Positions 2,284 through 49,863 of a stretch of DNA of 49,863 nucleotides are shown in pieces (position 1 is the first letter of the stretch; each line of letters opens with the position of its first letter). The stretch is from the UHGV virus genome UHGV-1522688, one strand, 5' to 3'. A program made the translations under genes and the position numbers. Origin of the DNA: a virus. Below the pieces are notes generated by a model. The model was not told where the DNA came from and ran no database searches. It saw only the letters and a program-made list of their open reading frames with translations.

Positions 2284-3132
2284 TTGATTAAAACAGGTCA
2301 TGTATCATCTTCAGAGTCAACATATCGCCAACTGTCTATCATTCCATTGAGGAAAAGTATGTCATCAGAAAATTTTGTCACCTTCTGGCTCGCTAGAGCC
2401 GATCTTCCATACTTTCTTGAACCTCATGAATTTTACGTTTCGGAGGCCAAGCGTAGACTTCTATCGCAGTTTGGCGATTTAGAACAAGAAGCAGAAAGGA
2501 GGGAACAACAGTATTTGGAAGCTACCTCAAAATATTTCGATCCTGATAACGATGATCCAATGGCTGCCTACGAGCAAGCCTACCACGTGGGAATTAATTA
2601 TGTATGGTCGCTTCTGGAGATGCAAAATACCGTGTTGTTGGCATTAACGGCAGGAATGTACCACCAGTTTGATAAAAAACTAAGAGAACACACCATCAAA
2701 GAACTAAGTAACTGGTGCAAAAGAGAATTAATTACTCCCATGATCTGGAATATAACTTTCCATCAGCTTATTGATTTACTCGAATGGATTGGCCTCAAAA
2801 TCAATGGAACCGGATACGGAGAGAGGATCAAAGCCTGTAACTTGGTAGTAAACGTATACAAGCATGGGGACGGGCCTGCGCATCAAACACTATCATTCAA
2901 TCATCCTGAGTACTATCAACACCCTACCGATGTTCGAGGTACGCAGAACATACATGACCATGATGATTTACATGTATCAGAAGAGCAATTTGTAGAGTTT
3001 GCTGACGCAATAACTGAATTCTGGAAAGCAGTTCCAGAGAATTGCTATTACTCAGATCTCAAAGAAGAACCCAAATGGTTGAGTAAAGTCGTAACAAAAT
3101 TCGATAAAAAACAGAAGGGAAATAGGGACTAA
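2284..3132 (+). CDS. hypothetical protein, A+T-rich islet gene 2
   Basis: 282-aa ORF (alternative start MSSENF about 2359) directly downstream of gene 1 on same strand; no recognised family. Confidence 0.5.
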   Translation: MIKTGHVSSSESTYRQLSIIPLRKSMSSENFVTFWLARADLPYFLEPHEFYVSEAKRRLLSQFGDLEQEAERREQQYLEATSKYFDPDNDDPMAAYEQAYHVGINYVWSLLEMQNTVLLALTAGMYHQFDKKLREHTIKELSNWCKRELITPMIWNITFHQLIDLLEWIGLKINGTGYGERIKACNLVVNVYKHGDGPAHQTLSFNHPEYYQHPTDVRGTQNIHDHDDLHVSEEQFVEFADAITEFWKAVPENCYYSDLKEEPKWLSKVVTKFDKKQKGNRD

Positions 3133-3240
3133 TTACCCATCTCAAAACATCAAGTTTGCAGTGCCCTGCTCCCCGTTTATTAGTATGGAAGTTAACAATG
3201 TCTGCTTCTGACACATAACAGCCCTTAAGATGGTAACTCG

Positions 3241-3290
3241 CCGTCATGGGGTGTCGGGGGTCGGAGGTTCAAATCCTCTCGTGCCGACCA
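3241..3290 (+). other. partial tRNA-Pro (3' ~50 nt incl. T-arm, acceptor 3' strand and CCA); integration-site remnant
   Basis: 'ccgtcatggggtgtcgggggtcggaggttcaaatcctctcgtgccgacca' matches the 3' half of enterobacterial tRNA-Pro(CGG) as recalled; the 5' acceptor strand 'cggcacg' and D-arm are absent upstream. Confidence 0.7.
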
Positions 3291-3303
3291 AAAATCCTCG
3301 AAG

Positions 3304-3330
3304 AACCAGCCTGTTACGGCTGGTTTTTTT
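3304..3330 (+). terminator. rho-independent terminator following tRNA remnant
   Basis: 8-bp stem aaccagcc/ggctggtt with 6-nt loop followed by TTTTT. Confidence 0.55.
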
Positions 3331-3420
3331 ATGCCTGTTTTCTGAACGGGGAAGCAACGGGGAATAATTGGGGAAAAACCCCGACACAAAACATCGACTT
3401 TACCGTAAAGTTTCAGCTAT

Positions 3421-3810
3421 TCACATCACTGGGCAGTCATCAAACTCCGCGTTCCTGGCATCATTAATGATGTACGTGATAACACCAAATATTGCGTGTG
3501 AAGAATTATAGCCATCACCGTCTTCTGGCAGCACTTCTCTTCTCCCGTTCTCCAGATTTATCAGGTGGGGCTGAGGGTGAGTTCGGTATCGCTTGATCCT
3601 GAATTCCCCATCTATCGCGCATATCAGCAGCGAGCCATCACAGGCTGAAAGCGACGCGTCCACAACAAGTAGTGCCCCCTGGATTATCCCTTCCCTGAAA
3701 TGTGAACACGATGCCCGCATGAAATAAGTCGCTGCGGGCTGGCTGATTAGCTGTTGATCGAGGGAAATCCTTGTTTCAACGTAATCACTGGCAGGTGAAG
3801 GGAAGCCCAT
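3421..3810 (-). CDS. UmuD'-like protein, encoded without the N-terminal arm (begins at the position equivalent to UmuD Gly25)
   Basis: From internal ATG with GGAGG SD: MGFPSPASDYVETRISLDQQLISQPAATYF... aligns with E. coli UmuD residues 25 onward ([29 protein letters not shown]); C-terminal 'AIDGEFRIKRY...FGVITYII' matches UmuD fold; Lys of the Ser-Lys dyad retained, GDSM motif diverged to CSHF. Confidence 0.8.
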   Translation of the reverse strand: MGFPSPASDYVETRISLDQQLISQPAATYFMRASCSHFREGIIQGALLVVDASLSACDGSLLICAIDGEFRIKRYRTHPQPHLINLENGRREVLPEDGDGYNSSHAIFGVITYIINDARNAEFDDCPVM

Positions 3811-3812
3811 GG

Positions 3813-4055
3813 CTATAGTCCTCCGTTTGGATTGAAAAGCTGAAAGGTACGGTTCTCCCCTTCCTGCGTTGATACATCGCGGAATGATGTCACATACCAC
3901 TCGATCCATTCGTTAGCCTGCTTCATCGTCCAGTTCCAGTTAACCTTGCTCAGTTCCTGGACAAACCGCTGTGTGGTGACGGTCTTCCGGCCATTAGGTT
4001 CTTGCTGTATCGAAGCATGCCAGGCCATTTCAATATCGCTGCGTCGTGGCATCAA
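3813..4055 (-). CDS. hypothetical protein, upstream partner of UmuD'-like gene
   Basis: 80-aa ORF ending 2 nt before the UmuD'-like ATG; not UmuC-like. Confidence 0.45.
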   Translation of the reverse strand: MMPRRSDIEMAWHASIQQEPNGRKTVTTQRFVQELSKVNWNWTMKQANEWIEWYVTSFRDVSTQEGENRTFQLFNPNGGL

Positions 4056-4094
4056 TTAACCCCTCTTGAATACCGGATAAAAACACAGTATAAA

Positions 4095-4114
4095 TACTGT
4101 ATATCCATCCAGTA
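4095..4114. promoter_or_regulatory. putative LexA box (SOS operator) in divergent promoter region
   Basis: TACTGTATATCCATCCAGTA: CTGT-N8-CCAG, same variant half-site as the E. coli dinI box as recalled; sits 17 nt upstream of the dinI-like start. Confidence 0.55.
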
Positions 4115-4130
4115 AAGATGACTACAAGAA

Positions 4131-4373
4131 ATGTTCGTGGAACTCGTTTATGACAAAAGGAATTTTGATGGGCTGCCTGGTGCAAAAGATATCATTCTGG
4201 GCGAATTGACCAAGAGGGTTCACCGGATCTTCCCCGATGCTGATGTTCGGGTTAAACCGATGATGACACTGCCGGCGATCAACACTGACGCCAGCAAGCA
4301 TGAGAAGGAACAGATAAGCCGTACTGTTCAGGAAATGTTTGAAGAAGCTGATATGTGGCTGGTTTCAGATTAA
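4131..4373 (+). CDS. DinI-family protein (DNA damage-inducible protein I-like)
   Basis: 80 aa; C-terminal '...EQISRTVQEMFEEADMWLVSD' parallels DinI '...QRISEILQETWESADDWFVSE'. Confidence 0.7.
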   Translation: MFVELVYDKRNFDGLPGAKDIILGELTKRVHRIFPDADVRVKPMMTLPAINTDASKHEKEQISRTVQEMFEEADMWLVSD

Positions 4374-4501
4374 ACACCTTGAACCGTCATATTGCTTAAG
4401 TACAATCCGCCGTGACTGGCAATCATTCAATACTCGCACTATCGAACGTTCGCCAGTCGGCCGCAATCATGCTCTTGCATACGGCGTGGTTGCGGCAACC
4501 G

Positions 4502-6058
4502 TCAATTTTGCTGGCTACCTTTCAGCGTCTCAATCACATTCTTCAGGGAATTGAGTTCAGACATCTGTTCCTTCATCGCTCTGCCCATATAAACCATAGC
4601 GCATGCCATATCGGCCATAATGACATTATTATCAAGGGCAAGGGTATCGTCTTTGAGACCAACCTCAATCTGATGGTCAACATATTCGTTACCGGACTCA
4701 TCCACACCAACAACGTCCTCAAAAACAGGTCCACCAGGCACTATCTTTACGTACTGCGGATCAACTTTAGTCAGATCCTGGGCAATAAGGCCAAAACGCT
4801 GTGTATCCGACCCCTTATACTTAAACATGGTCGGTAACCACTGCATGACACGGTCGAAACTGTCTTTCCCGTCCCGATATTGGATATCTTCTTTTAGATC
4901 GCGGTCTGATGTCGCATTCTTGGCGAACACGTACGATCCCTGCCAGTTTGACCCGGATTCGTTCCATACGTCAGTAGTGATATCACCAGACTGAGGATTG
5001 AATCTGAACATCCTGTGATATCTGGCATCGCCCATAAAATGTAAGACGCCATGTGGCCAGCCATTGGCACCATTAGAAATGAGTCCCAGTGACAGACGAG
5101 TACTCCACCCACCCGATGCAGAAGAACCACCAGAAACGATTGGAGCCCAGCCACCATCATTTCCACCAACAATGGCGGACCAGTAAGGGGTGGTCCATGG
5201 ACCATCAACATCCCCCCAGCCACCCGATCCGCACTGTCCCCAGAAACCACGTGGTGATTGTATAACCCCACCATAACCAGAAAGAAAGTTGAAACGGTAT
5301 GTGTTCGCTCCTGCTCCAAAACTATTCGCGATTAGAGCAATGGCATCCAGATAATTACCCGCACCTCGTATCCCGCCAAACTGATAGAACGAATTCCCCA
5401 TCCACCCCTGCAGCTGGTTCATCATCCAGCCCAGTTCACCATCAACGTTATTCGACGTCAGTAAAATATCCTTCTTGACGCCAGCAGTGCTTTTGACGCC
5501 TGTACCCGACCCACCCGCCACCGAATTGACGCCACGGGTGCCAAGAACACTACCGAACGTAACATCCTGAGAGTTTCCCAAAGTGAGATTATCGCGGGCC
5601 GCATTTTTATCAGGCAGATCGGCCAGGGCCTGGCTTTTCAACAAAGCATTATTGATCTGATCAATAATGCTTTTCCATGATGGTCCTGTAAACTCCGTAT
5701 TGTCAGGAAGCCTGACAGTAATATTGCCGTTCGCAGAGAATAAAAGTTGCCAGTTCTGTTTGTCGTAATTCAGCCCCCGCAGCGCCTCCGTGTTCTGCAC
5801 CACCATTGCGGCAGTAACCATATTCAGCGCCACACGAGGAACAGCTGACCAGGCCGCGCCAGATTGGGTTGGCCCGGTGTAATTGCTGACCAGCGTCAAC
5901 GCTGTACCACTTTCCACGGACTTAACCGGAAGCGTATAGGGAACACCACCGACCGTAACAACAATAAAATCTCCGGCCGCCACCTCAGTGGTAAACGCGG
6001 TCCCGCTGCCAGCGACCGCAGCCGAGTTATTCATCAGGGTTAATGTTCCTGCTGACAT
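4502..6058 (-). CDS. side tail fiber protein with C-terminal intramolecular chaperone (peptidase S74-like) domain
   Basis: 518 aa; Gly/Ser-rich repeats; C-terminal 'SDRDLKEDIQY...RFGLIAQDL...' typical of auto-cleaving chaperone domain of phage fibers. Confidence 0.75.
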   Translation of the reverse strand: MSAGTLTLMNNSAAVAGSGTAFTTEVAAGDFIVVTVGGVPYTLPVKSVESGTALTLVSNYTGPTQSGAAWSAVPRVALNMVTAAMVVQNTEALRGLNYDKQNWQLLFSANGNITVRLPDNTEFTGPSWKSIIDQINNALLKSQALADLPDKNAARDNLTLGNSQDVTFGSVLGTRGVNSVAGGSGTGVKSTAGVKKDILLTSNNVDGELGWMMNQLQGWMGNSFYQFGGIRGAGNYLDAIALIANSFGAGANTYRFNFLSGYGGVIQSPRGFWGQCGSGGWGDVDGPWTTPYWSAIVGGNDGGWAPIVSGGSSASGGWSTRLSLGLISNGANGWPHGVLHFMGDARYHRMFRFNPQSGDITTDVWNESGSNWQGSYVFAKNATSDRDLKEDIQYRDGKDSFDRVMQWLPTMFKYKGSDTQRFGLIAQDLTKVDPQYVKIVPGGPVFEDVVGVDESGNEYVDHQIEVGLKDDTLALDNNVIMADMACAMVYMGRAMKEQMSELNSLKNVIETLKGSQQN

Positions 6059-13369: not shown

Positions 13370-14983
13370 ATGAATATTGTGCATTATGCAGCCATTGGAG
13401 CTGTAGCTTTCGTAGTTGTTCTAACAATTTTGGTGATAAACATCATTAAATTAAAGTCAGCCAAGGCTGATGCAGCAGAAAAGGCGGCAAAACTTGAGCG
13501 TTACGCGTCAATCACCAATGCTGAAACAGAAGCTGAACGAATCGTGAATGCAGCTAAGCAAACCGCAGAAGAGTTAATTATTGATTCGCAGAATAACCTT
13601 GACGAGGCAAAAGCTGAAGCAGCCAACACTATTGCAGCCAGTGAAAAAGATGCAAGATCTATAACACAGCGTGCGGAGGATATTCTATCAGATGCGCGTT
13701 TAGCAGCTAAGCGAATGAACGCAGAGGCGCTGACCGCTGTAGAAACACAAAGAGTCAAGCGTGCAGAAATTGAAAAACAGATTGATGAATTGCGTAAATC
13801 CTATCGTGAGAAAAAAATCACTTACGATGAGCTGACGGAAGCCCTGTCAATTTATAAAGATGATATGGAATTTGCTGACATGGGGTTCTATGCACCACAC
13901 TTCGATTTTGATACCTCGGCTAGTTTTCAGGATGCGATCAAGGCATGTCGCGAACGGCAAAAAAATCTGCTACGTGACAAAACTGAATTTGGCGCAATAC
14001 ATTGCCCTACTGAATGGACGGTTGGCGGCTCTAAAAGTGAAGGTCGGAAAATGACCACTCGCGGCATTCAGATGACAGCACGTGCATTCAATGGTGAGTG
14101 TGATGCAGCTATTGCAAACTGCACATTTAAAAACGTTTATCAAATGGAGCAAAGAATTTATAAAGCCTTTGATGCCTTGAATAAGATGAATGAGGTTAAC
14201 CAGATTTACATCAATCGTGCTTTTTTAGATTTGAAGCTGGATGAACTTCGACTTACACATGAATATCGTTTGAAAAAACAAGAAGAACGAGAAGAACAAC
14301 GTGAAATCCGCGCTCAGATGGCTGAGGAGAAGCGAGCTCAAGCCGAAATTGATCGTGCACTTCGAGAGGCTGAAGATGAAGAACGCCGCGCCCAAAAAGC
14401 GTTGGATAAAGCCCGAAAAGAAATGGAATCGAAGCTAGCCCAAATGACAGCTGAGCAAGTTGAGAAACACCAAGCGAAGGTATCCGAATTAGAACATGCC
14501 TTAGAAGAGGCATTGTTGAAAGGCCAAAAAGCTCTTTCTATGGCTCAACAAACTAAACGCGGCCACGTGTACGTTATCTCTAATATTGGTTCGTTTGGTG
14601 ATGATGTTTTTAAAATAGGAATGACACGTCGACTTGACCCTCAAGATCGAGTGGATGAACTGGGTAGTGCATCAGTCCCATTCCTGTTCGATGTTCATGC
14701 AATGATTTTCAGTGAAGATGCACCAACAATGGAAAACATGCTCCACCAGCGTTTCAATGAGCAACGCACTAACCTAGTTAATAAGCGTAAAGAGTTTTTC
14801 AATGTAAAATTAAGCGATATCAAAGATGCTGTGTTTGAGATCGCAGGTAAAGATGTAGATTTTATCGAAACAGCAACTGCTCAGCATTATTATGAAACAA
14901 AGGCAATTCGTAAGCAGAAAGCGGATATCATTTCAGTTGTTCCTCAAGAGGAAAAACTACCTAAATTTGCGGACGCAATATAA
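13370..14983 (+). CDS. membrane-anchored coiled-coil protein with DUF4041-like region and C-terminal T5orf172/MUG113 (GIY-YIG-like) domain; candidate defence/exclusion factor
   Basis: 537 aa; N-terminal hydrophobic helix (AIGAVAFVVVLTILVINII); long Ala/Glu/Lys/Arg-rich helical stretches; C-terminal 'GHVYVISNIGSFGDDVFKIGMTRRLDPQDRVDEL...VPF...LHQRFNEQRTNLVNKRKEFF' matches T5orf172 signature as recalled; opposite strand to the tail operon; A+T-rich. Confidence 0.7.
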   Translation: MNIVHYAAIGAVAFVVVLTILVINIIKLKSAKADAAEKAAKLERYASITNAETEAERIVNAAKQTAEELIIDSQNNLDEAKAEAANTIAASEKDARSITQRAEDILSDARLAAKRMNAEALTAVETQRVKRAEIEKQIDELRKSYREKKITYDELTEALSIYKDDMEFADMGFYAPHFDFDTSASFQDAIKACRERQKNLLRDKTEFGAIHCPTEWTVGGSKSEGRKMTTRGIQMTARAFNGECDAAIANCTFKNVYQMEQRIYKAFDALNKMNEVNQIYINRAFLDLKLDELRLTHEYRLKKQEEREEQREIRAQMAEEKRAQAEIDRALREAEDEERRAQKALDKARKEMESKLAQMTAEQVEKHQAKVSELEHALEEALLKGQKALSMAQQTKRGHVYVISNIGSFGDDVFKIGMTRRLDPQDRVDELGSASVPFLFDVHAMIFSEDAPTMENMLHQRFNEQRTNLVNKRKEFFNVKLSDIKDAVFEIAGKDVDFIETATAQHYYETKAIRKQKADIISVVPQEEKLPKFADAI

Positions 14984-36409: not shown

Positions 36410-36616
36410 TCACCCCCAGACCTTTTGCCGAAAGGTTCTTGGTGTACGCGCCGGATGCTCGCATTCAGGTAATTTTGCGCTAACAGTCCAGGTGATATTG
36501 TCGCGATTCAGGCTGCGTTCTACCGTGGCGCCGCGGCGTCGGTAACAGGCAATAAGTTCGTCGGCCTGCTCGGTTGTGCATTCGTGATGGTGGAACCAGG
36601 AAAATTTCATCGCCAT
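36410..36616 (-). CDS. hypothetical small nin-region protein
   Basis: 68 aa from ATG overlapping upstream stop (TGATG coupling). Confidence 0.45.
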   Translation of the reverse strand: MAMKFSWFHHHECTTEQADELIACYRRRGATVERSLNRDNITWTVSAKLPECEHPARTPRTFRQKVWG

Positions 36617-37218
36617 CACCCCGCAAAACTCATAAGCTGCGCAGCGGCGTTTTCCGCTTCTCGCTGAGTCTTGAATGCCCGGGACAATACCCAGCGCCAC
36701 AGAACATCGAGCGCGGCTTTGTAAAGTTGCTGGAACTCGGTTTCGTCCATGTTGGCGAAAGCTATGCTGCGGGGGTGTTTACGAAGAGTTCCGTCAGGTA
36801 GTTGAATTGCGTCGTAGTGGCCGGCCTCGACAATTACCCAGGCACGGTACGCGTCAAAGGATTTACACAGGCTGATCCCATTGGTAACTCGGCGACTGGC
36901 TACCTGCTCCAGATACTGCTCGGCAGCATCCAGCAGTGCGCCTTCGTTTCCACCAAATGCCGCGAGGAATTTAGCATAACCATTTACGAGCTTACGCTCA
37001 TTGCTGGATATCGCCCCTCCAGTAGGTTCCCAGTATTCAAACCCGAGATTCAGGAGCGCAAAAAAACGGCGATGGAATGCGGGATTCCTCACCTGGCGAA
37101 ATTCGGCTACCAGCACGGCACCGAGTTTGATTTTTGATTGCAGAATATCGCTGGTCTCCGGCGTCGCGGGGATCAGGATTCCTGATGACTGCTTGATGAG
37201 TTGTAGTTCGTGCGCCAT
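36616..37218 (-). CDS. nin-region protein (DUF1367-like?)
   Basis: 200-aa ORF; family guess from memory only. Confidence 0.45.
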   Translation of the reverse strand: MAHELQLIKQSSGILIPATPETSDILQSKIKLGAVLVAEFRQVRNPAFHRRFFALLNLGFEYWEPTGGAISSNERKLVNGYAKFLAAFGGNEGALLDAAEQYLEQVASRRVTNGISLCKSFDAYRAWVIVEAGHYDAIQLPDGTLRKHPRSIAFANMDETEFQQLYKAALDVLWRWVLSRAFKTQREAENAAAQLMSFAG

Positions 37219-37300
37219 GGTATTCCCCGTGGCGCATAATTGTCAGGTTACTGGTTGTTCAGGCCAGTGACAGAATTATGATTGGGTACGTAGCATTAAG

Positions 37301-37522
37301 TCAATTTTTAGAAGTCATCTCCCTTACAACTTCCATGATGGTTTCTTTGGACCAGTACAATTCATCTCTGGATAATTTTCTGTTAGTTACAGAACCGGCC
37401 TTGGCTGAAAGGATGTAGCGTTCATCCGCTGCAAGTCCGAAAGACAAAAGCTCCCGACCTTTCCCATCGGTTATGATCACCCGTAAATTATCAGCAAGAT
37501 CTGATTGGGCTATATCTGCCAC
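37301..37522 (-). CDS. hypothetical small protein
   Basis: 73-aa ORF. Confidence 0.4.
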   Translation of the reverse strand: MADIAQSDLADNLRVIITDGKGRELLSFGLAADERYILSAKAGSVTNRKLSRDELYWSKETIMEVVREMTSKN

Positions 37523-37631
37523 TTAATCCCCCTGAGCGACATACAGACGCGATTAAAGAATGTCGGCAGCAGCATCAAAGGGATACACATTTTGGTATTC
37601 TGATAAATGCGCGCCAGCCTTAAGCGCAATT

Positions 37632-37865
37632 CTAATAAAACCAGTCGTCAGCGCTTTCCCAGGTATCCTGGAGGATTGATTCAATTTTCTTTTTATCGTC
37701 CTTGTCACCGCCAAAAACACTTAACCCATCCGACCCGGCACGGCGGATTGTGAGCCTGCAATTGTCATAGTGATCATTCAGGCGCTTAAGCAATTCTTTC
37801 TCCAGTGCAGGAACCGCGCCTTTAGGAAGTTCTTTCATACGATCAATGGTTAATTCAACTTTCAT
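37632..37865 (-). CDS. DinI-family protein (second copy)
   Basis: Start at ATG with GGAGG SD: MKVELTIDR...; C-terminal 'KKKIESILQDTWESADDWFY' nearly identical to DinI 'QRISEILQETWESADDWFVSE'. Confidence 0.8.
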   Translation of the reverse strand: MKVELTIDRMKELPKGAVPALEKELLKRLNDHYDNCRLTIRRAGSDGLSVFGGDKDDKKKIESILQDTWESADDWFY

Positions 37866-37883
37866 AATGGCCTCCAATGCATA

Positions 37884-37903
37884 TACTGTGTTTTTATACA
37901 GTA
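37884..37903. promoter_or_regulatory. LexA box upstream of second dinI-like gene
   Basis: TACTGTGTTTTTATACAGTA: perfect CTGT-N8-ACAG, 19 nt upstream of start codon. Confidence 0.65.
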
Positions 37904-42519: not shown

Positions 42520-42738
42520 CTAACGTGGCAAACCATCTGTTGGGTTTGGGTAAATATCACTACGGACCTCATGCGGAGTGATTTTCCAATCGAGTAAACG
42601 GCAAATTGGAAGCACGCGGTGCGCAGGAACCTCGTGGTTTAACCAAAGGCTGACCGCTTGAGACGTAGTGCCAAGATTTTTCGCTATTTCTGTTTGCGTC
42701 ATAACCGCACAAACACGTTGTTTAATGGAATTTGTCAT
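42520..42738 (-). CDS. Cro/YdaS-like HTH regulator
   Basis: Start taken at MTNSIKQRVCAVMTQTEIAKNLGTTSQAVSLW; HTH; divergent from repressor. Confidence 0.7.
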   Translation of the reverse strand: MTNSIKQRVCAVMTQTEIAKNLGTTSQAVSLWLNHEVPAHRVLPICRLLDWKITPHEVRSDIYPNPTDGLPR

Positions 42739-42847
42739 ATGCAACCCTCGGATATTGAAATTCAAGATTACAACATGAAAAAAATATTTTCAATCCTGAA
42801 TGAAAATAATCTTTGCAATGCGGAATGAAAGGCTACCTTGTAGAATG
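42739..42847. promoter_or_regulatory. immunity-region divergent promoter/operator with inverted repeats
   Basis: Palindrome TTGAAATTCAA (42755-42765) and TTTTCA-N8-TGAAAA (42787-42806) between cro-like and repressor genes. Confidence 0.4.
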
Positions 42848-43264
42848 GAAGACATGAAAAAAGCACCCAACGAAGCGTTTGCCTACCGACTTCAGCTCGT
42901 CAGAGATGAGTTCGGTTGGAACATGTCAGATATAGCCCGGAGAGCGATGGTTACTCCCCAGGCAGTGCAGCAATGGGCCAAAGGAGAGTCAGCTCCAAGA
43001 GGTGAGCGCTTAAAGCGTCTCGCTGCAGCTGCTGGAAAGCCCGAACATTGGTTTTTCATGCCACCAAATACCGAAGGTGAAGATGCTGGGGTGCATGAGC
43101 CACCGCGGCAACTGGATGAAAAAGAAATCGCACTGCTTACGTTGTTCAATCAAATGCCAGAAGCTGAAAAGCTACGTTTGATAGTGCATGCCAAGGCTAC
43201 CTTGAGAGAGCTTGATCTCCTCAAAGATGATGTGTCTAGCATCATTCAAAGTATTCAGAAGTAA
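42800..43264 (+). CDS. CI-like / XRE-family prophage repressor
   Basis: 154 aa (alternative start 42845); HTH 'WNMSDIARRAMVTPQAVQQWAKGESAP'; divergent from cro-like gene. Confidence 0.75.
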   Translation: MKIIFAMRNERLPCRMEDMKKAPNEAFAYRLQLVRDEFGWNMSDIARRAMVTPQAVQQWAKGESAPRGERLKRLAAAAGKPEHWFFMPPNTEGEDAGVHEPPRQLDEKEIALLTLFNQMPEAEKLRLIVHAKATLRELDLLKDDVSSIIQSIQK

Positions 43265-48476: not shown

Positions 48477-48677
48477 ATGGATGATATTTTGCTGACGTCA
48501 GACCTGACCAGTCGATACAAAATCTCACGTAAAACCCTTTGGTCATGGCAAAGCACAGACACGATGCCGCGGGGTTTTGCGAAGCCGTTCCCCGCCCCGG
48601 ACTTCCCCGGTAACCCTAACCGCTGGAAGTCGGAGTCAGTCAAAGAGTGGGAAGGTGTGAAACAGCCAATTAACTGA
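48477..48677 (+). CDS. xis: excisionase (AlpA/Xis-family HTH)
   Basis: 66 aa; '[12 protein letters not shown]' HTH typical of AlpA-type; adjacent to integrase. Confidence 0.7.
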
Positions 48678-49863
48678 ACGGCTCACCGATGATGTTTTCA
48701 AGATGGCTCTGCCAAACGTGGAGCCAGTGTTTTTGATCATCGATGTAGTCATGCAGGTTATAGTGCGCCATCACGCCAACCATTTGGTGACCAAGTAACT
48801 TTTCAATCACATGCGGCGGACAGCCAAGTTCTGAAAGATTTGTTGCGATTGTTCTTCTCATATCATGGAGAGACCAGGGCTCCATGCCGGATTCTGACCA
48901 AATATACCTGGCGTAGTTCGAAGCAACTGGCGGATGAACCGGGACGTCTTTAATTTCCCCATCCAATAAGCGCTGTGAAGTGACTAAATGCTTTGTGTTG
49001 ATCTTCTCAAGATGATTTTTTACCAGTCCCACCGCAGCATCAGAAAGAGCCCTTCTCATGTGCACTCGCGTTTTGTAACTTCCAGCAGGAACTATCCATT
49101 CATTTTCATCCAGCTTGAACCATGACCTTTCGCTTAACCGAATCTCTGCCGTCCTACAGCCGGTCAACATAATAAATTTCACAAGAAACACGGACTCTAT
49201 GGACATGCGGTTTTGCAGCCACCGATAAATAGCCACCAGCTCACGATCATCCAAGCGCCGCGTTCTCTTTTTCGGTTTTTGGCCAACGTCAGTGGGTAGC
49301 AATCCCTCGAGCGGATTGGTCGATATTACGCCTCGGTTAATACAGAACCTGAATGAGCGTTTGCACAGCGAAAGCATATAATGAGCCATCACCCTGCTTT
49401 CAATCTGATCAAAAACATCTATCCAGTGCCTTTTTGTCGAATTGTCGACTTTGACGTTTCGCATCGGTTCGGCGATATGCTTGGCAAATACCAACTGATA
49501 ATAACCTGTCTTTGTCAGTTGATTAGCGATGCAGTGTTTCTCGATCCAATAATTGAATGCTTCCGATACGGCCATGGAACCTTCGCGGGTCAATTTCTCC
49601 AGCTTTACTTGCTCTCGGGGATCGAGTCCTTCAGTAAGCCAGATTCTGAATTGCTGACGCCTTTCCCTTGCCTGAGCAATACTCATTGCTGGATAATCGC
49701 CGACATTGAGTTTTACAGCTTTGCCTGCCCATCTGTACCGGTAGAAGAAAGAGACCTTTCCGGCCAGACTGATTCTTGCGTTGAGTCCGTGAGAATCTGA
49801 AATAATTTCGATATCATCGCGTTTCTTGCCAAGGGCCTTCCTGAGCTTTGTGTCAGTGATCAT
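48670..49863 (-). CDS. int: tyrosine integrase (start at or beyond window edge)
   Basis: 397 aa; catalytic-domain motifs '[11 protein letters not shown]', 'LHDMRRT', 'MAHYNLH'; N-terminus 'TDTKLRKA' typical of P4-like integrases. Confidence 0.9.

Follow-up and report, generated by a model that had tools for sequence, protein, structure and literature searches.

Does a UmuD-like gene that is carried next to a divergent DinI-family gene encode a new modulator of host RecA and DNA polymerase V (Pol V), or is it a further copy of cargo already known from phages? This question is raised by positions 3421-4373 of the virus genome UHGV-1522688, a stretch of 49,863 nucleotides that was analyzed in full and is referred to here as the window. 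The locus holds three genes (table 1): a UmuD'-like gene, which we designate humD; a small open reading frame (ORF) preceding it, ORF80; and a dinI-like gene, which diverges from ORF80 across a 78-bp region containing a LexA box. An original prediction, made by a model from the sequence and without database searches, had proposed that these genes form an SOS-controlled prophage module that modulates RecA and Pol V activity during induction. As set out below, the HumD–DinI module is an ordinary copy of phage cargo that is already known, because a curated protein family model (NF051876) and the P1 HumD paradigm cover it and the same module is present in phage HK140; the founding description of HumD already covers the central idea of the prediction.

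Identity and Start of the humD Gene

The window protein matches the NCBIfam equivalog model NF051876, "HumD family translesion DNA polymerase," with 223.3 bits (cutoff 120), and the match is collinear, with residues 1-129 on profile positions 1-129 of 129. It also passes the gathering threshold of Peptidase S24 (Pfam PF00717; 35 bits vs. 23.3) and misses the cutoff of the UmuD subfamily (NCBIfam NF007621; 91.2 bits vs. 110). Identity reaches 69.8% over 129/129 amino acids (aa) with the HumD proteins of P1 and P7, and 62-70% with N15 gp26 and the proteins of phiKO2, HK639, and HK140. The UmuD' chain 1umu_A from the PDB is found by phmmer at E=1e-22, and hhalign against UmuD gives a probability of 99.8% with a match beginning at G25. 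The N-terminus MGFPSPASDYVE pairs with UmuD G25-E35 in MAFFT, in phmmer against the PDB UmuD' chains and in hhalign; neither a counterpart of UmuD residues 1-24 nor a Cys/Ala-Gly cleavage site was found in the window protein with MAFFT and hhalign. There being no N-terminal arm and no Cys24/Gly25-type site, self-cleavage mediated by activated RecA (RecA*) is therefore not needed. By these alignments the window gene is a member of the HumD family, predicted to encode the UmuD'-size form directly and without a cleavable N-terminal arm.

The position of the start codon is conserved throughout the family. MGFPSP is the exact start in 102/120 family cluster representatives, and among the 80 closest HumD loci of IMG/VR (the viral loci in what follows) all 80 combine a length of 129 aa with the MGFPSP start, 79 of them with an ATG codon there. 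The comparison with relatives speaks against an upstream start that would give a cleavable full-length protein: in-frame stops lie 4-19 codons upstream of the humD start in the homologues of P1, HK140, N15, Klebsiella, and Salmonella, and in the upstream stretch 9 to 10 of the 12 substitutions relative to related sequences are at third codon positions when read in the ORF80 frame. The gene is under purifying selection, with a ratio of nonsynonymous to synonymous substitution rates (dN/dS) of 0.09 against three relatives. A longer frame of 162 aa, opening at ATG 3909 with the extension MDRVVCDIIPRC..., was considered and rejected, being not conserved, interrupted by the upstream stops of the homologues and overlain by the substitutions that follow the ORF80 frame; judged on this pattern it is a chance open frame. 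Some database entries for HumD do carry N-terminal extensions, reaching 148-167 aa. What these extended models translate is the ORF80 overlap or the LexA-box/operator region, through which some of them run upstream, and the extensions have no similarity to the UmuD arm.

The original prediction had placed the start of the gene at the equivalent of UmuD Gly25, behind a GGAGG Shine-Dalgarno sequence, and had taken the product for a natively preprocessed UmuD' form; the three alignment methods and the family match bear out both statements, and the coordinates are correct. It had further noted that no umuC follows. In agreement with this, no ORF of the size of umuC or of a Y-family polymerase was seen adjoining the humD 3' end, the whole window not having been scanned with a UmuC model, and 3' of the humD stop at 3421 there are only a hairpin and a tRNA-Pro fragment.

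Catalytic Residues

The canonical G-D-S-M motif around the catalytic Ser60 of UmuD is not kept in the HumD-like protein, and a one-residue gap near this motif allows two placements. In the phmmer register H37 stands opposite Ser60; in MAFFT and in the hhalign comparison using a HumD profile, S36 stands opposite Ser60 and Asp59 is deleted. K73 is opposite Lys97 in every alignment. Among 110 family members, position 36 is Ser in 80, Thr in 29, and Ala in one; position 37 is His in 102 and Tyr in 8; and position 73 is Lys in 108. Following the profile alignment, a Ser/Thr...Lys pair is probably retained and conserved, with S36 as the equivalent of Ser60. The family thus described keeps [S/T]-H...K despite having no cleavage site in the protein. 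Of the claim that GDSM had diverged to CSHF with the dyad Lys retained, the part concerning the Lys holds; the replacement of Ser by His is probably an error of register.

The Shared LexA Box and Its Promoters

To score LexA sites we used a position weight matrix (PWM). Box 1, TACTGTATATCCATCCAGTA, scores 24.2 bits, a value to be weighed in the knowledge that the matrix is one of our own, made from Escherichia coli LexA boxes and used in place of the heterology index of Lewis et al. When the window was shuffled 200 times by mononucleotide, the highest score per shuffle averaged 12.5 +/- 2.5, and the best of all was 19.9. The box agrees with the consensus, a CTG-N10-CAG palindrome of the type TACTG(TA)5CAGTA, at 17/20 positions, and only one further site in the 49.9-kb window, at 37884-37903, scores as high. 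It is conserved across seven aligned loci. All related loci examined first, and 21/26 species-level loci, have a LexA box of at least 20 bits in the corresponding position, the species-level loci being those found with the ORF80 profile; at a cutoff of 18 bits a box is present in 78/80 viral loci. The proposal of a LexA box shared with a divergent DinI-family gene is hence upheld by the score, which lies above all 200 shuffles, and by conservation in relatives.

A second LexA-like site, TACCGGATAAAAACACAGTA, lies 4 nt from box 1 and is degenerate (17.2-17.6 bits, with CCG for CTG). Two e14-like E. coli loci (our handles L003 and L004) have a good box, CACTGGATAAAAAAACAGCA, of 20.8 bits where the window has this degenerate site, and because of this a tandem-operator ancestry is likely for the two sites. 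Candidate sigma-70 promoters were found in both directions. The rightward one, in front of the dinI-like gene, is a reading of the sequence: its hexamers are kept in 6/7 aligned loci, the consensus promoter scan did not report it, and LexA box 1 begins directly 3' of its -10 element. The leftward candidate, in front of ORF80 and humD, was matched by the scan at 9/12 consensus positions and overlaps both LexA sites.

The Divergent DinI-Like Gene

That a DinI-family gene diverges behind this box was recognized correctly in the original prediction. The product matches Pfam PF06183 (DinI) with 75.5 bits (cutoff 24.2), and its score against the NCBIfam DinI equivalog NF007893 is 41.8 bits, below the cutoff of 111; going by these scores it is an MsgA-type paralogue and not a DinI orthologue. 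The HK140 homologue is annotated as "similar to virulence protein msgA." In Salmonella, nalidixic acid induces the DinI paralogue msgA 3.4-fold, and a LexA box lies 14 bp away from the ATG of this gene (PMC8072944). The C-terminus of the window protein, VQEMFEEADMWLVSD, contains an acidic helix (EEMFEEADMW). Homologues of the gene form 1,482 clusters. Its dN/dS against relatives is 0-0.12; like humD and ORF80, it is under strong purifying selection. In the ribosome-binding region (4115-4130) the window reads AAAGATGACTACAAGAA-ATG versus a conserved AAAGAGGCAATAAGCA-ATG in all close relatives.

ORF80 Is a Conserved Partner of humD

ORF80 had been described as an unrelated ORF of 80 aa. This does not hold: it is a conserved partner gene, apparently coupled to humD, and in 22/26 species-level loci an ORF beginning MGF(P/A/V)SPA starts at most 8 nt 3' of it. 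Its start is most likely ATG 4052, giving 79 aa, because the homologues are of this length and AGAGGGG sits 7 nt upstream. Since 2 nt separate its stop codon (TAG, 3813-3815) from the humD start and the GGAGG of humD lies inside ORF80, the arrangement suggests translational coupling of the two genes; stop and start are placed as in the window in L005, L010, L017, and L018. With a dN/dS of 0.08-0.11 against relatives, ORF80 too is under purifying selection.

ORF80 corresponds to phrog_3893. Homologues are found across the Enterobacterales, down to about 50% identity, and are often labeled "DNA polymerase V" at NCBI. A profile search of 1.84 billion representatives returned 161 representative clusters, nearly all of about 79 aa; no informative fusions were found among these 161 clusters, Pfam scans of the longer proteins being uninformative. 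ORF80 itself has no match in Pfam or NCBIfam, and its profile gave only spurious matches against PDB sequences, namely to a 14-residue stretch of WD40 designs. The AlphaFold2 model has a winged-helix topology with a predicted local distance difference test score (pLDDT) of 90.8; a Foldseek search of this model against the PDB gave nothing better than E > 0.1. The gene also occurs in 1,097 plasmid records, 955 of them predicted to be conjugative. A linear N15-like plasmid of Salmonella has it too, and an IncX3 plasmid has it 5' of an S24 gene that is interrupted by IS26.

In the species-level loci the partners of ORF80 are either of HumD size (125-129 aa) or of a "mini" form of 105-108 aa. Mini-HumD proteins of 102-108 aa in all begin MGFPSPAxDY(V/I)E and are without the region that bears the S24 Ser loop; they are always encoded 3' of an ORF80 homologue and behind a LexA box (L005, L010, L019, L020, L022, L026, L027, L033-L035, L037, L039, and L044). 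They have no Pfam match and stay below threshold for the HumD and UmuD models; agreement with these models is confined to the N-terminal part, some 25 residues in the one instance and as far as residue 53 of the UmuD model in the second. The mini-HumD proteins appear to be an uncharacterized derivative family.

Distribution of the Module and Comparison with Known Systems

The 80 viral loci show the module in several compositions. A divergent DinI gene, ORF80, and HumD occur together with a LexA box in 17; in five, ORF80 and HumD stand behind the box without a divergent DinI gene; and 14 have the divergent DinI gene and HumD with the box and no ORF80. Seven are P1-like, with a divergent lxr gene and a LexA box; in 35 HumD is alone behind the box; and two, one with ORF80 and one without, have no LexA box at the 18-bit cutoff. 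An E. coli locus, L002, is a precise version of the intergenic region of the window without ORF80.

HumD is known from the literature as an already-activated short UmuD under LexA regulation. The window gene shares with P1/P7 HumD the length of 129 aa, 70% identity, the start at the Gly25 equivalent, and the absence of an adjacent umuC; in P1, as here, a LexA box lies directly upstream and is common to a divergent gene, and the GenBank record AF234173 annotates this site as common to lxr and humD. The systems differ in the divergent partner, which in P1 is lxr instead of a DinI gene, and in ORF80, which is not found upstream in P1; moreover, P1 is a plasmid prophage, whereas the prophage of the window gene is lambdoid and integrated, with the gene at its att end. 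The closest counterpart in gene order is phage HK140 (NC_019710, gp26-gp27-gp28), with a tail fibre gene, a divergent DinI gene, a 79-aa ORF, a UmuD-like gene, attP, and int in the same order; its putative attP directly follows the UmuD-like gene, and the e14-like E. coli elements are equivalent to this module. HK140 gp27 is an ORF80 homologue (hhalign probability 99%). Identities to the window proteins are 69% for HumD, 37-39% for ORF80, and 62% for DinI, and the LexA box of HK140 scores 22.6 bits; unlike in the window, there is a single LexA box in HK140, and its dinI has a longer leader.

With E. coli UmuD/UmuD' (PDB 1UMU, 1AY9) the window protein shares the S24 beta-fold, the GFPSPAxDYVE arm, the Lys97 equivalent, and probably the Ser60 equivalent. 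It differs in being without residues 1-24, the Cys24/Gly25 site, and a umuC partner, and in having an additional conserved C-terminal tail, NDARxxEFDDCPVM. Physical linkage of DinI- and UmuD-family genes on mobile elements is also seen in the impCAB-type plasmid operons, in which ImpC is a DinI homologue, ImpA is UmuD-like, and ImpB is UmuC-like. A precedent for the pairing comes from an E. coli IncF plasmid, where a DinI-like gene and a umuD homologue overlap in an impCAB-like manner. The impCAB operons are, however, co-directional; their UmuD homologue is full-length and cleavable, and a polymerase gene is part of the operon. The window module is divergent and pretruncated and has no polymerase gene. 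A literature search for UmuD-like, DinI, prophage, and LexA in combination found no papers.

A Separate Operon for Prophage Induction

The window is a Gifsy-like lambdoid prophage with two DinI paralogues, each behind a LexA box of its own. The second box, TACTGTATAAAAACACAGTA, scores 24.8-25.3 bits and heads a minus-strand operon in which it follows a terminator-like hairpin and precedes dinI, a 73-aa ORF with 79% identity to the Gifsy-1/2 region 3' of the dinI homologues, and a DUF1367 gene. According to Lemire et al. (2011; PMC3121763), known LexA-controlled antirepressors occur in linkage with DinI homologues, the antirepressor genes of Gifsy-1/2 sitting 3' of the dinI homologues. By gene order and similarity, the operon at 36616-37903 reads as exactly the induction operon of this type. 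The humD module has in common with it a LexA-controlled prophage locus with a DinI homologue; it differs in having no antirepressor homologue, and the late region separates the two, one lying at each end. The repressor candidate of the window has an HTH_3 domain only, without an S24 cleavage domain, and a Cro-like ORF diverges from it; the predicted immunity region (42520-43264) fits antirepressor-driven rather than cleavage-driven induction.

Because the Gifsy-type operon sits separately, the humD–ORF80–dinI module is not the induction switch; it is a second SOS unit of accessory nature. The original prediction is right in siting the module in a prophage; its words "during induction" do not justify giving the module a part in induction itself, as the prophage has its own antirepressor operon.

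Proposed Mechanism and Alternative Explanations

We consider it likely that the locus is a LexA-repressed, bidirectional accessory ("moron") module, proximal to the att site, which supplies a UmuD' equivalent and a RecA-tuning DinI paralogue. In the undamaged cell LexA would occupy 4095-4114, and possibly 4071-4090, occluding two back-to-back promoters; upon damage, RecA* would drive LexA self-cleavage and both promoters would fire. Leftward, one mRNA would then yield the small winged-helix protein ORF80 and the coupled HumD-family protein, and rightward transcription would yield the DinI/MsgA-like protein. By homology with P1 HumD, the HumD-like protein most likely dimerizes and binds host UmuC and RecA filaments, and it would give a translesion polymerase of the Pol V type its accessory subunit sooner than the host pathway can. 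P1 HumD itself is reported to dimerize, to bind UmuC and RecA filaments, and to restore mutagenesis where UmuD' cannot be made. For the DinI paralogue, again by homology, the most likely action is on RecA filaments, which it would bind via the acidic C-terminal helix, tuning the coprotease activity of activated RecA. The binding of LexA and the effect on RecA and Pol V are predicted from these likenesses, as would be any benefit to phage or host.

Several observations weigh against this interpretation. At the second LexA site CCG replaces the critical CTG, and LexA binding to it is uncertain in the window copy. The loss of the AGAGG Shine-Dalgarno sequence, which reads AGATGA in the window versus AGAGG in the relatives, makes the ribosome-binding site of the dinI-like gene weaker, so that translation of the window copy may be weaker too. 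P1 HumD is said to be poorly expressed and to complement well only from high-copy plasmids, leaving its in vivo role uncertain. Finally, ORF80 and the mini-HumD partners without an active-site loop hint at something beyond a plain UmuD' surrogate.

This last hint could be extended to the view that the ORF80/HumD-like pair is a modulator of SOS or of activated RecA, or a regulatory complex, and not primarily a Pol V activator: the GFPSPAxDY arm and the beta-domain would act as a decoy or competitor on activated RecA or on host UmuD/UmuC, with ORF80 targeting or regulating, possibly via DNA. The close spacing of GF(P/A/V)SPA-type genes behind ORF80 (at most 8 nt in 22/26 species-level loci), the share of mini forms without the Ser-loop region (about half of the ORF80 partners), the confident winged-helix prediction, and the retention of [S/T]-H...K though no cleavage substrate is present would all agree with such a role, as would the place of the pair in the backbone of many conjugative plasmids (1,097 records, with the IncX3 example). 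We nevertheless regard it as distinctly unlikely for the window, where the protein is a full-length HumD with 70% identity to that of P1; furthermore, 57/80 viral loci encode HumD without ORF80, so HumD function does not require ORF80. P1 HumD is also said to complement UmuD'. A wider suggestion, that ORF80 and HumD-type proteins, including the undescribed mini-HumD, form a dedicated SOS unit with an activity beyond simple Pol V activation, for example as a DNA-targeted or RecA-directed regulator specific for the activated form, is speculative and in our judgment unlikely; the unit is spread over prophages, N15-like phage-plasmids, and more than 1,000 plasmids, mostly predicted to be conjugative.

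That the module could instead be the SOS induction switch of the prophage, with ORF80 as a LexA-controlled antirepressor like Tum of 186, AntC of N15, or GfoA/GftA of Gifsy, is very improbable. In its favor, the repressor candidate, with HTH_3 only and no S24 domain, calls for an antirepressor; ORF80 is a small gene under LexA control; and the known LexA-controlled antirepressors linked to DinI homologues (PMC3121763) offer a model. The complete Gifsy-type operon already present at 37903-36616 speaks against it, and ORF80 is also carried by conjugative plasmids and by phages whose immunity systems differ. Assignment of ORF80 to the GfoA/GftA/Tum/AntC type was tried and rejected: it belongs to phrog_3893, and the GfoA/GftA-like ORF of the window is that at 37301-37522, with its own LexA box. 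Scarcely credible, to our mind, is the notion that humD is the decaying remnant of a 5'-truncated umuDC (a pseudogene), or that the real product is the 162-aa ORF from ATG 3909. It could draw on an "S24 family peptidase, frameshifted" call across ORF80 and humD by the NCBI Prokaryotic Genome Annotation Pipeline (PGAP) in some E. coli genomes, and on the entries extended to 148-167 aa. The dN/dS of 0.09, the 129-aa length with the MGFPSP start in 102/120 clusters and 80/80 viral loci, the upstream in-frame stops of homologues, the substitutions following the ORF80 frame, and the dissimilarity of the extensions to the UmuD arm all contradict it. The favored interpretation of an accessory HumD–DinI module is retained, and because the locus is routine HumD-family SOS cargo we regard it as settled in this sense, with no special follow-up needed as a "new" RecA/Pol V modulator.

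Annotation and Significance

The frameshifted PGAP call, the misnaming of HumD, and over-extension were noted in the E. coli loci L001, L003, and L004 and in the database entries P0062, P0063, P0067, and P0072. "LexA family transcriptional regulator" is the name given to many HumD entries, and "DNA polymerase V" that given to ORF80 homologues; the present analysis corrects this recurring misannotation of both genes. Enterobacterial prophages and plasmids very often carry the ORF80–HumD pair, which is under SOS control; a preactivated UmuD' from phage or plasmid could affect damage-induced mutagenesis in clinical Enterobacterales. The pairing of ORF80 with mini-HumD is the sole loose thread.

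Prophage Setting and Neighboring Genes

The host of the prophage is probably of Citrobacter type. The humD module lies at one end of the window and the integrase gene at the other (table 1).

Table 1. Features of the humD locus and of other regions of the window (49,863 nt)
Feature	Position	Strand	Remarks
tRNA-Pro 3' fragment	3241-3297	plus	57 nt; 100% identity to annotated E. coli tRNA-Pro genes (BLAST)
Hairpin with U-run	3300-3329	U-run on plus	about 90 nt beyond humD stop
humD-like gene	3421-3810	minus	129 aa from ATG; predicted natively truncated UmuD' homologue
ORF80	3813-4052	minus	79 aa; conserved partner, predicted winged helix; ORF list extends to TTG 4055
Shine-Dalgarno of humD, GGAGG	3820-3824	minus	9 nt before ATG, within final ORF80 codons N-G-G-L
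Shine-Dalgarno of ORF80, AGAGGGG	4060-4066	minus	7 nt before ATG 4052; region conserved in intergenic alignment
Candidate sigma-70 promoter, dinI-like gene	4066-4094	plus	TTGAAT (4066-4071), 17-nt spacer, TATAAA (4089-4094); sequence reading
LexA-like site 2, degenerate	4071-4090		4 nt from box 1
Candidate sigma-70 promoter, ORF80-humD	4087-4116	minus	TTTACT (4116-4111), 18-nt spacer, TATACT (4092-4087); consensus match only
LexA box 1	4095-4114		16 nt before dinI-like ATG
dinI-like gene	4131-4373	plus	80 aa, DinI family, divergent from ORF80-humD
Tail-fibre gene	4502-6058	minus	Peptidase_S74 C-terminal domain
Gifsy-type SOS operon	37903 down to 36616	minus	hairpin, LexA box, dinI, 73-aa ORF, DUF1367
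DUF1367 (IrsA-like) gene	36616-37218	minus	
73-aa ORF	37301-37522	minus	GTG start
DinI homologue	37632-37865	minus	Pfam, 90.6 bits
LexA box of Gifsy-type operon	37884-37903	minus-strand operon	
Cro-like ORF	42520-42765	minus	81 aa; divergent from repressor candidate
Repressor candidate	42800-43264	plus	154 aa; HTH_3 domain only
Integrase	48670-49863		

Beyond the humD stop, the hairpin at 3300-3329 has a fold energy of -17.5 kcal/mol (z = -5.6) on the plus strand and -14.4 (z = -4.3) on the minus strand, and could be a bidirectional terminator. The adjacent tRNA-Pro fragment is likely an att-core relic at the prophage end; ARAGORN found no complete tRNA in the window, and an Rfam scan of 2900-4600 returned only a sub-threshold STnc50. 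The same fragment is present and unannotated within e14-like E. coli elements and several phage genomes, and its plus orientation relative to the prophage differs from the prediction of a simple attR model.

Two further observations concern the cargo of the prophage. A gene for an SRAP/YedK-type "SOS response-associated peptidase" lies at 152-823 on the plus strand (Pfam, 171.7 bits), 2.6 kb from humD; the intervening ORFs at 1054-2124 and 2284-3132 have no Pfam match. The SRAP and HumD genes are directly adjacent, tail to tail, in the e14-like E. coli elements, which suggests a recurrent cluster of DNA-damage-tolerance cargo. Within the tail-gene block, on the opposite (plus) strand at 13370-14983, a 537-aa ORF with DUF4041 and T5orf172/MUG113 domains is probably another moron, of a kind frequent in defense-type cargo.

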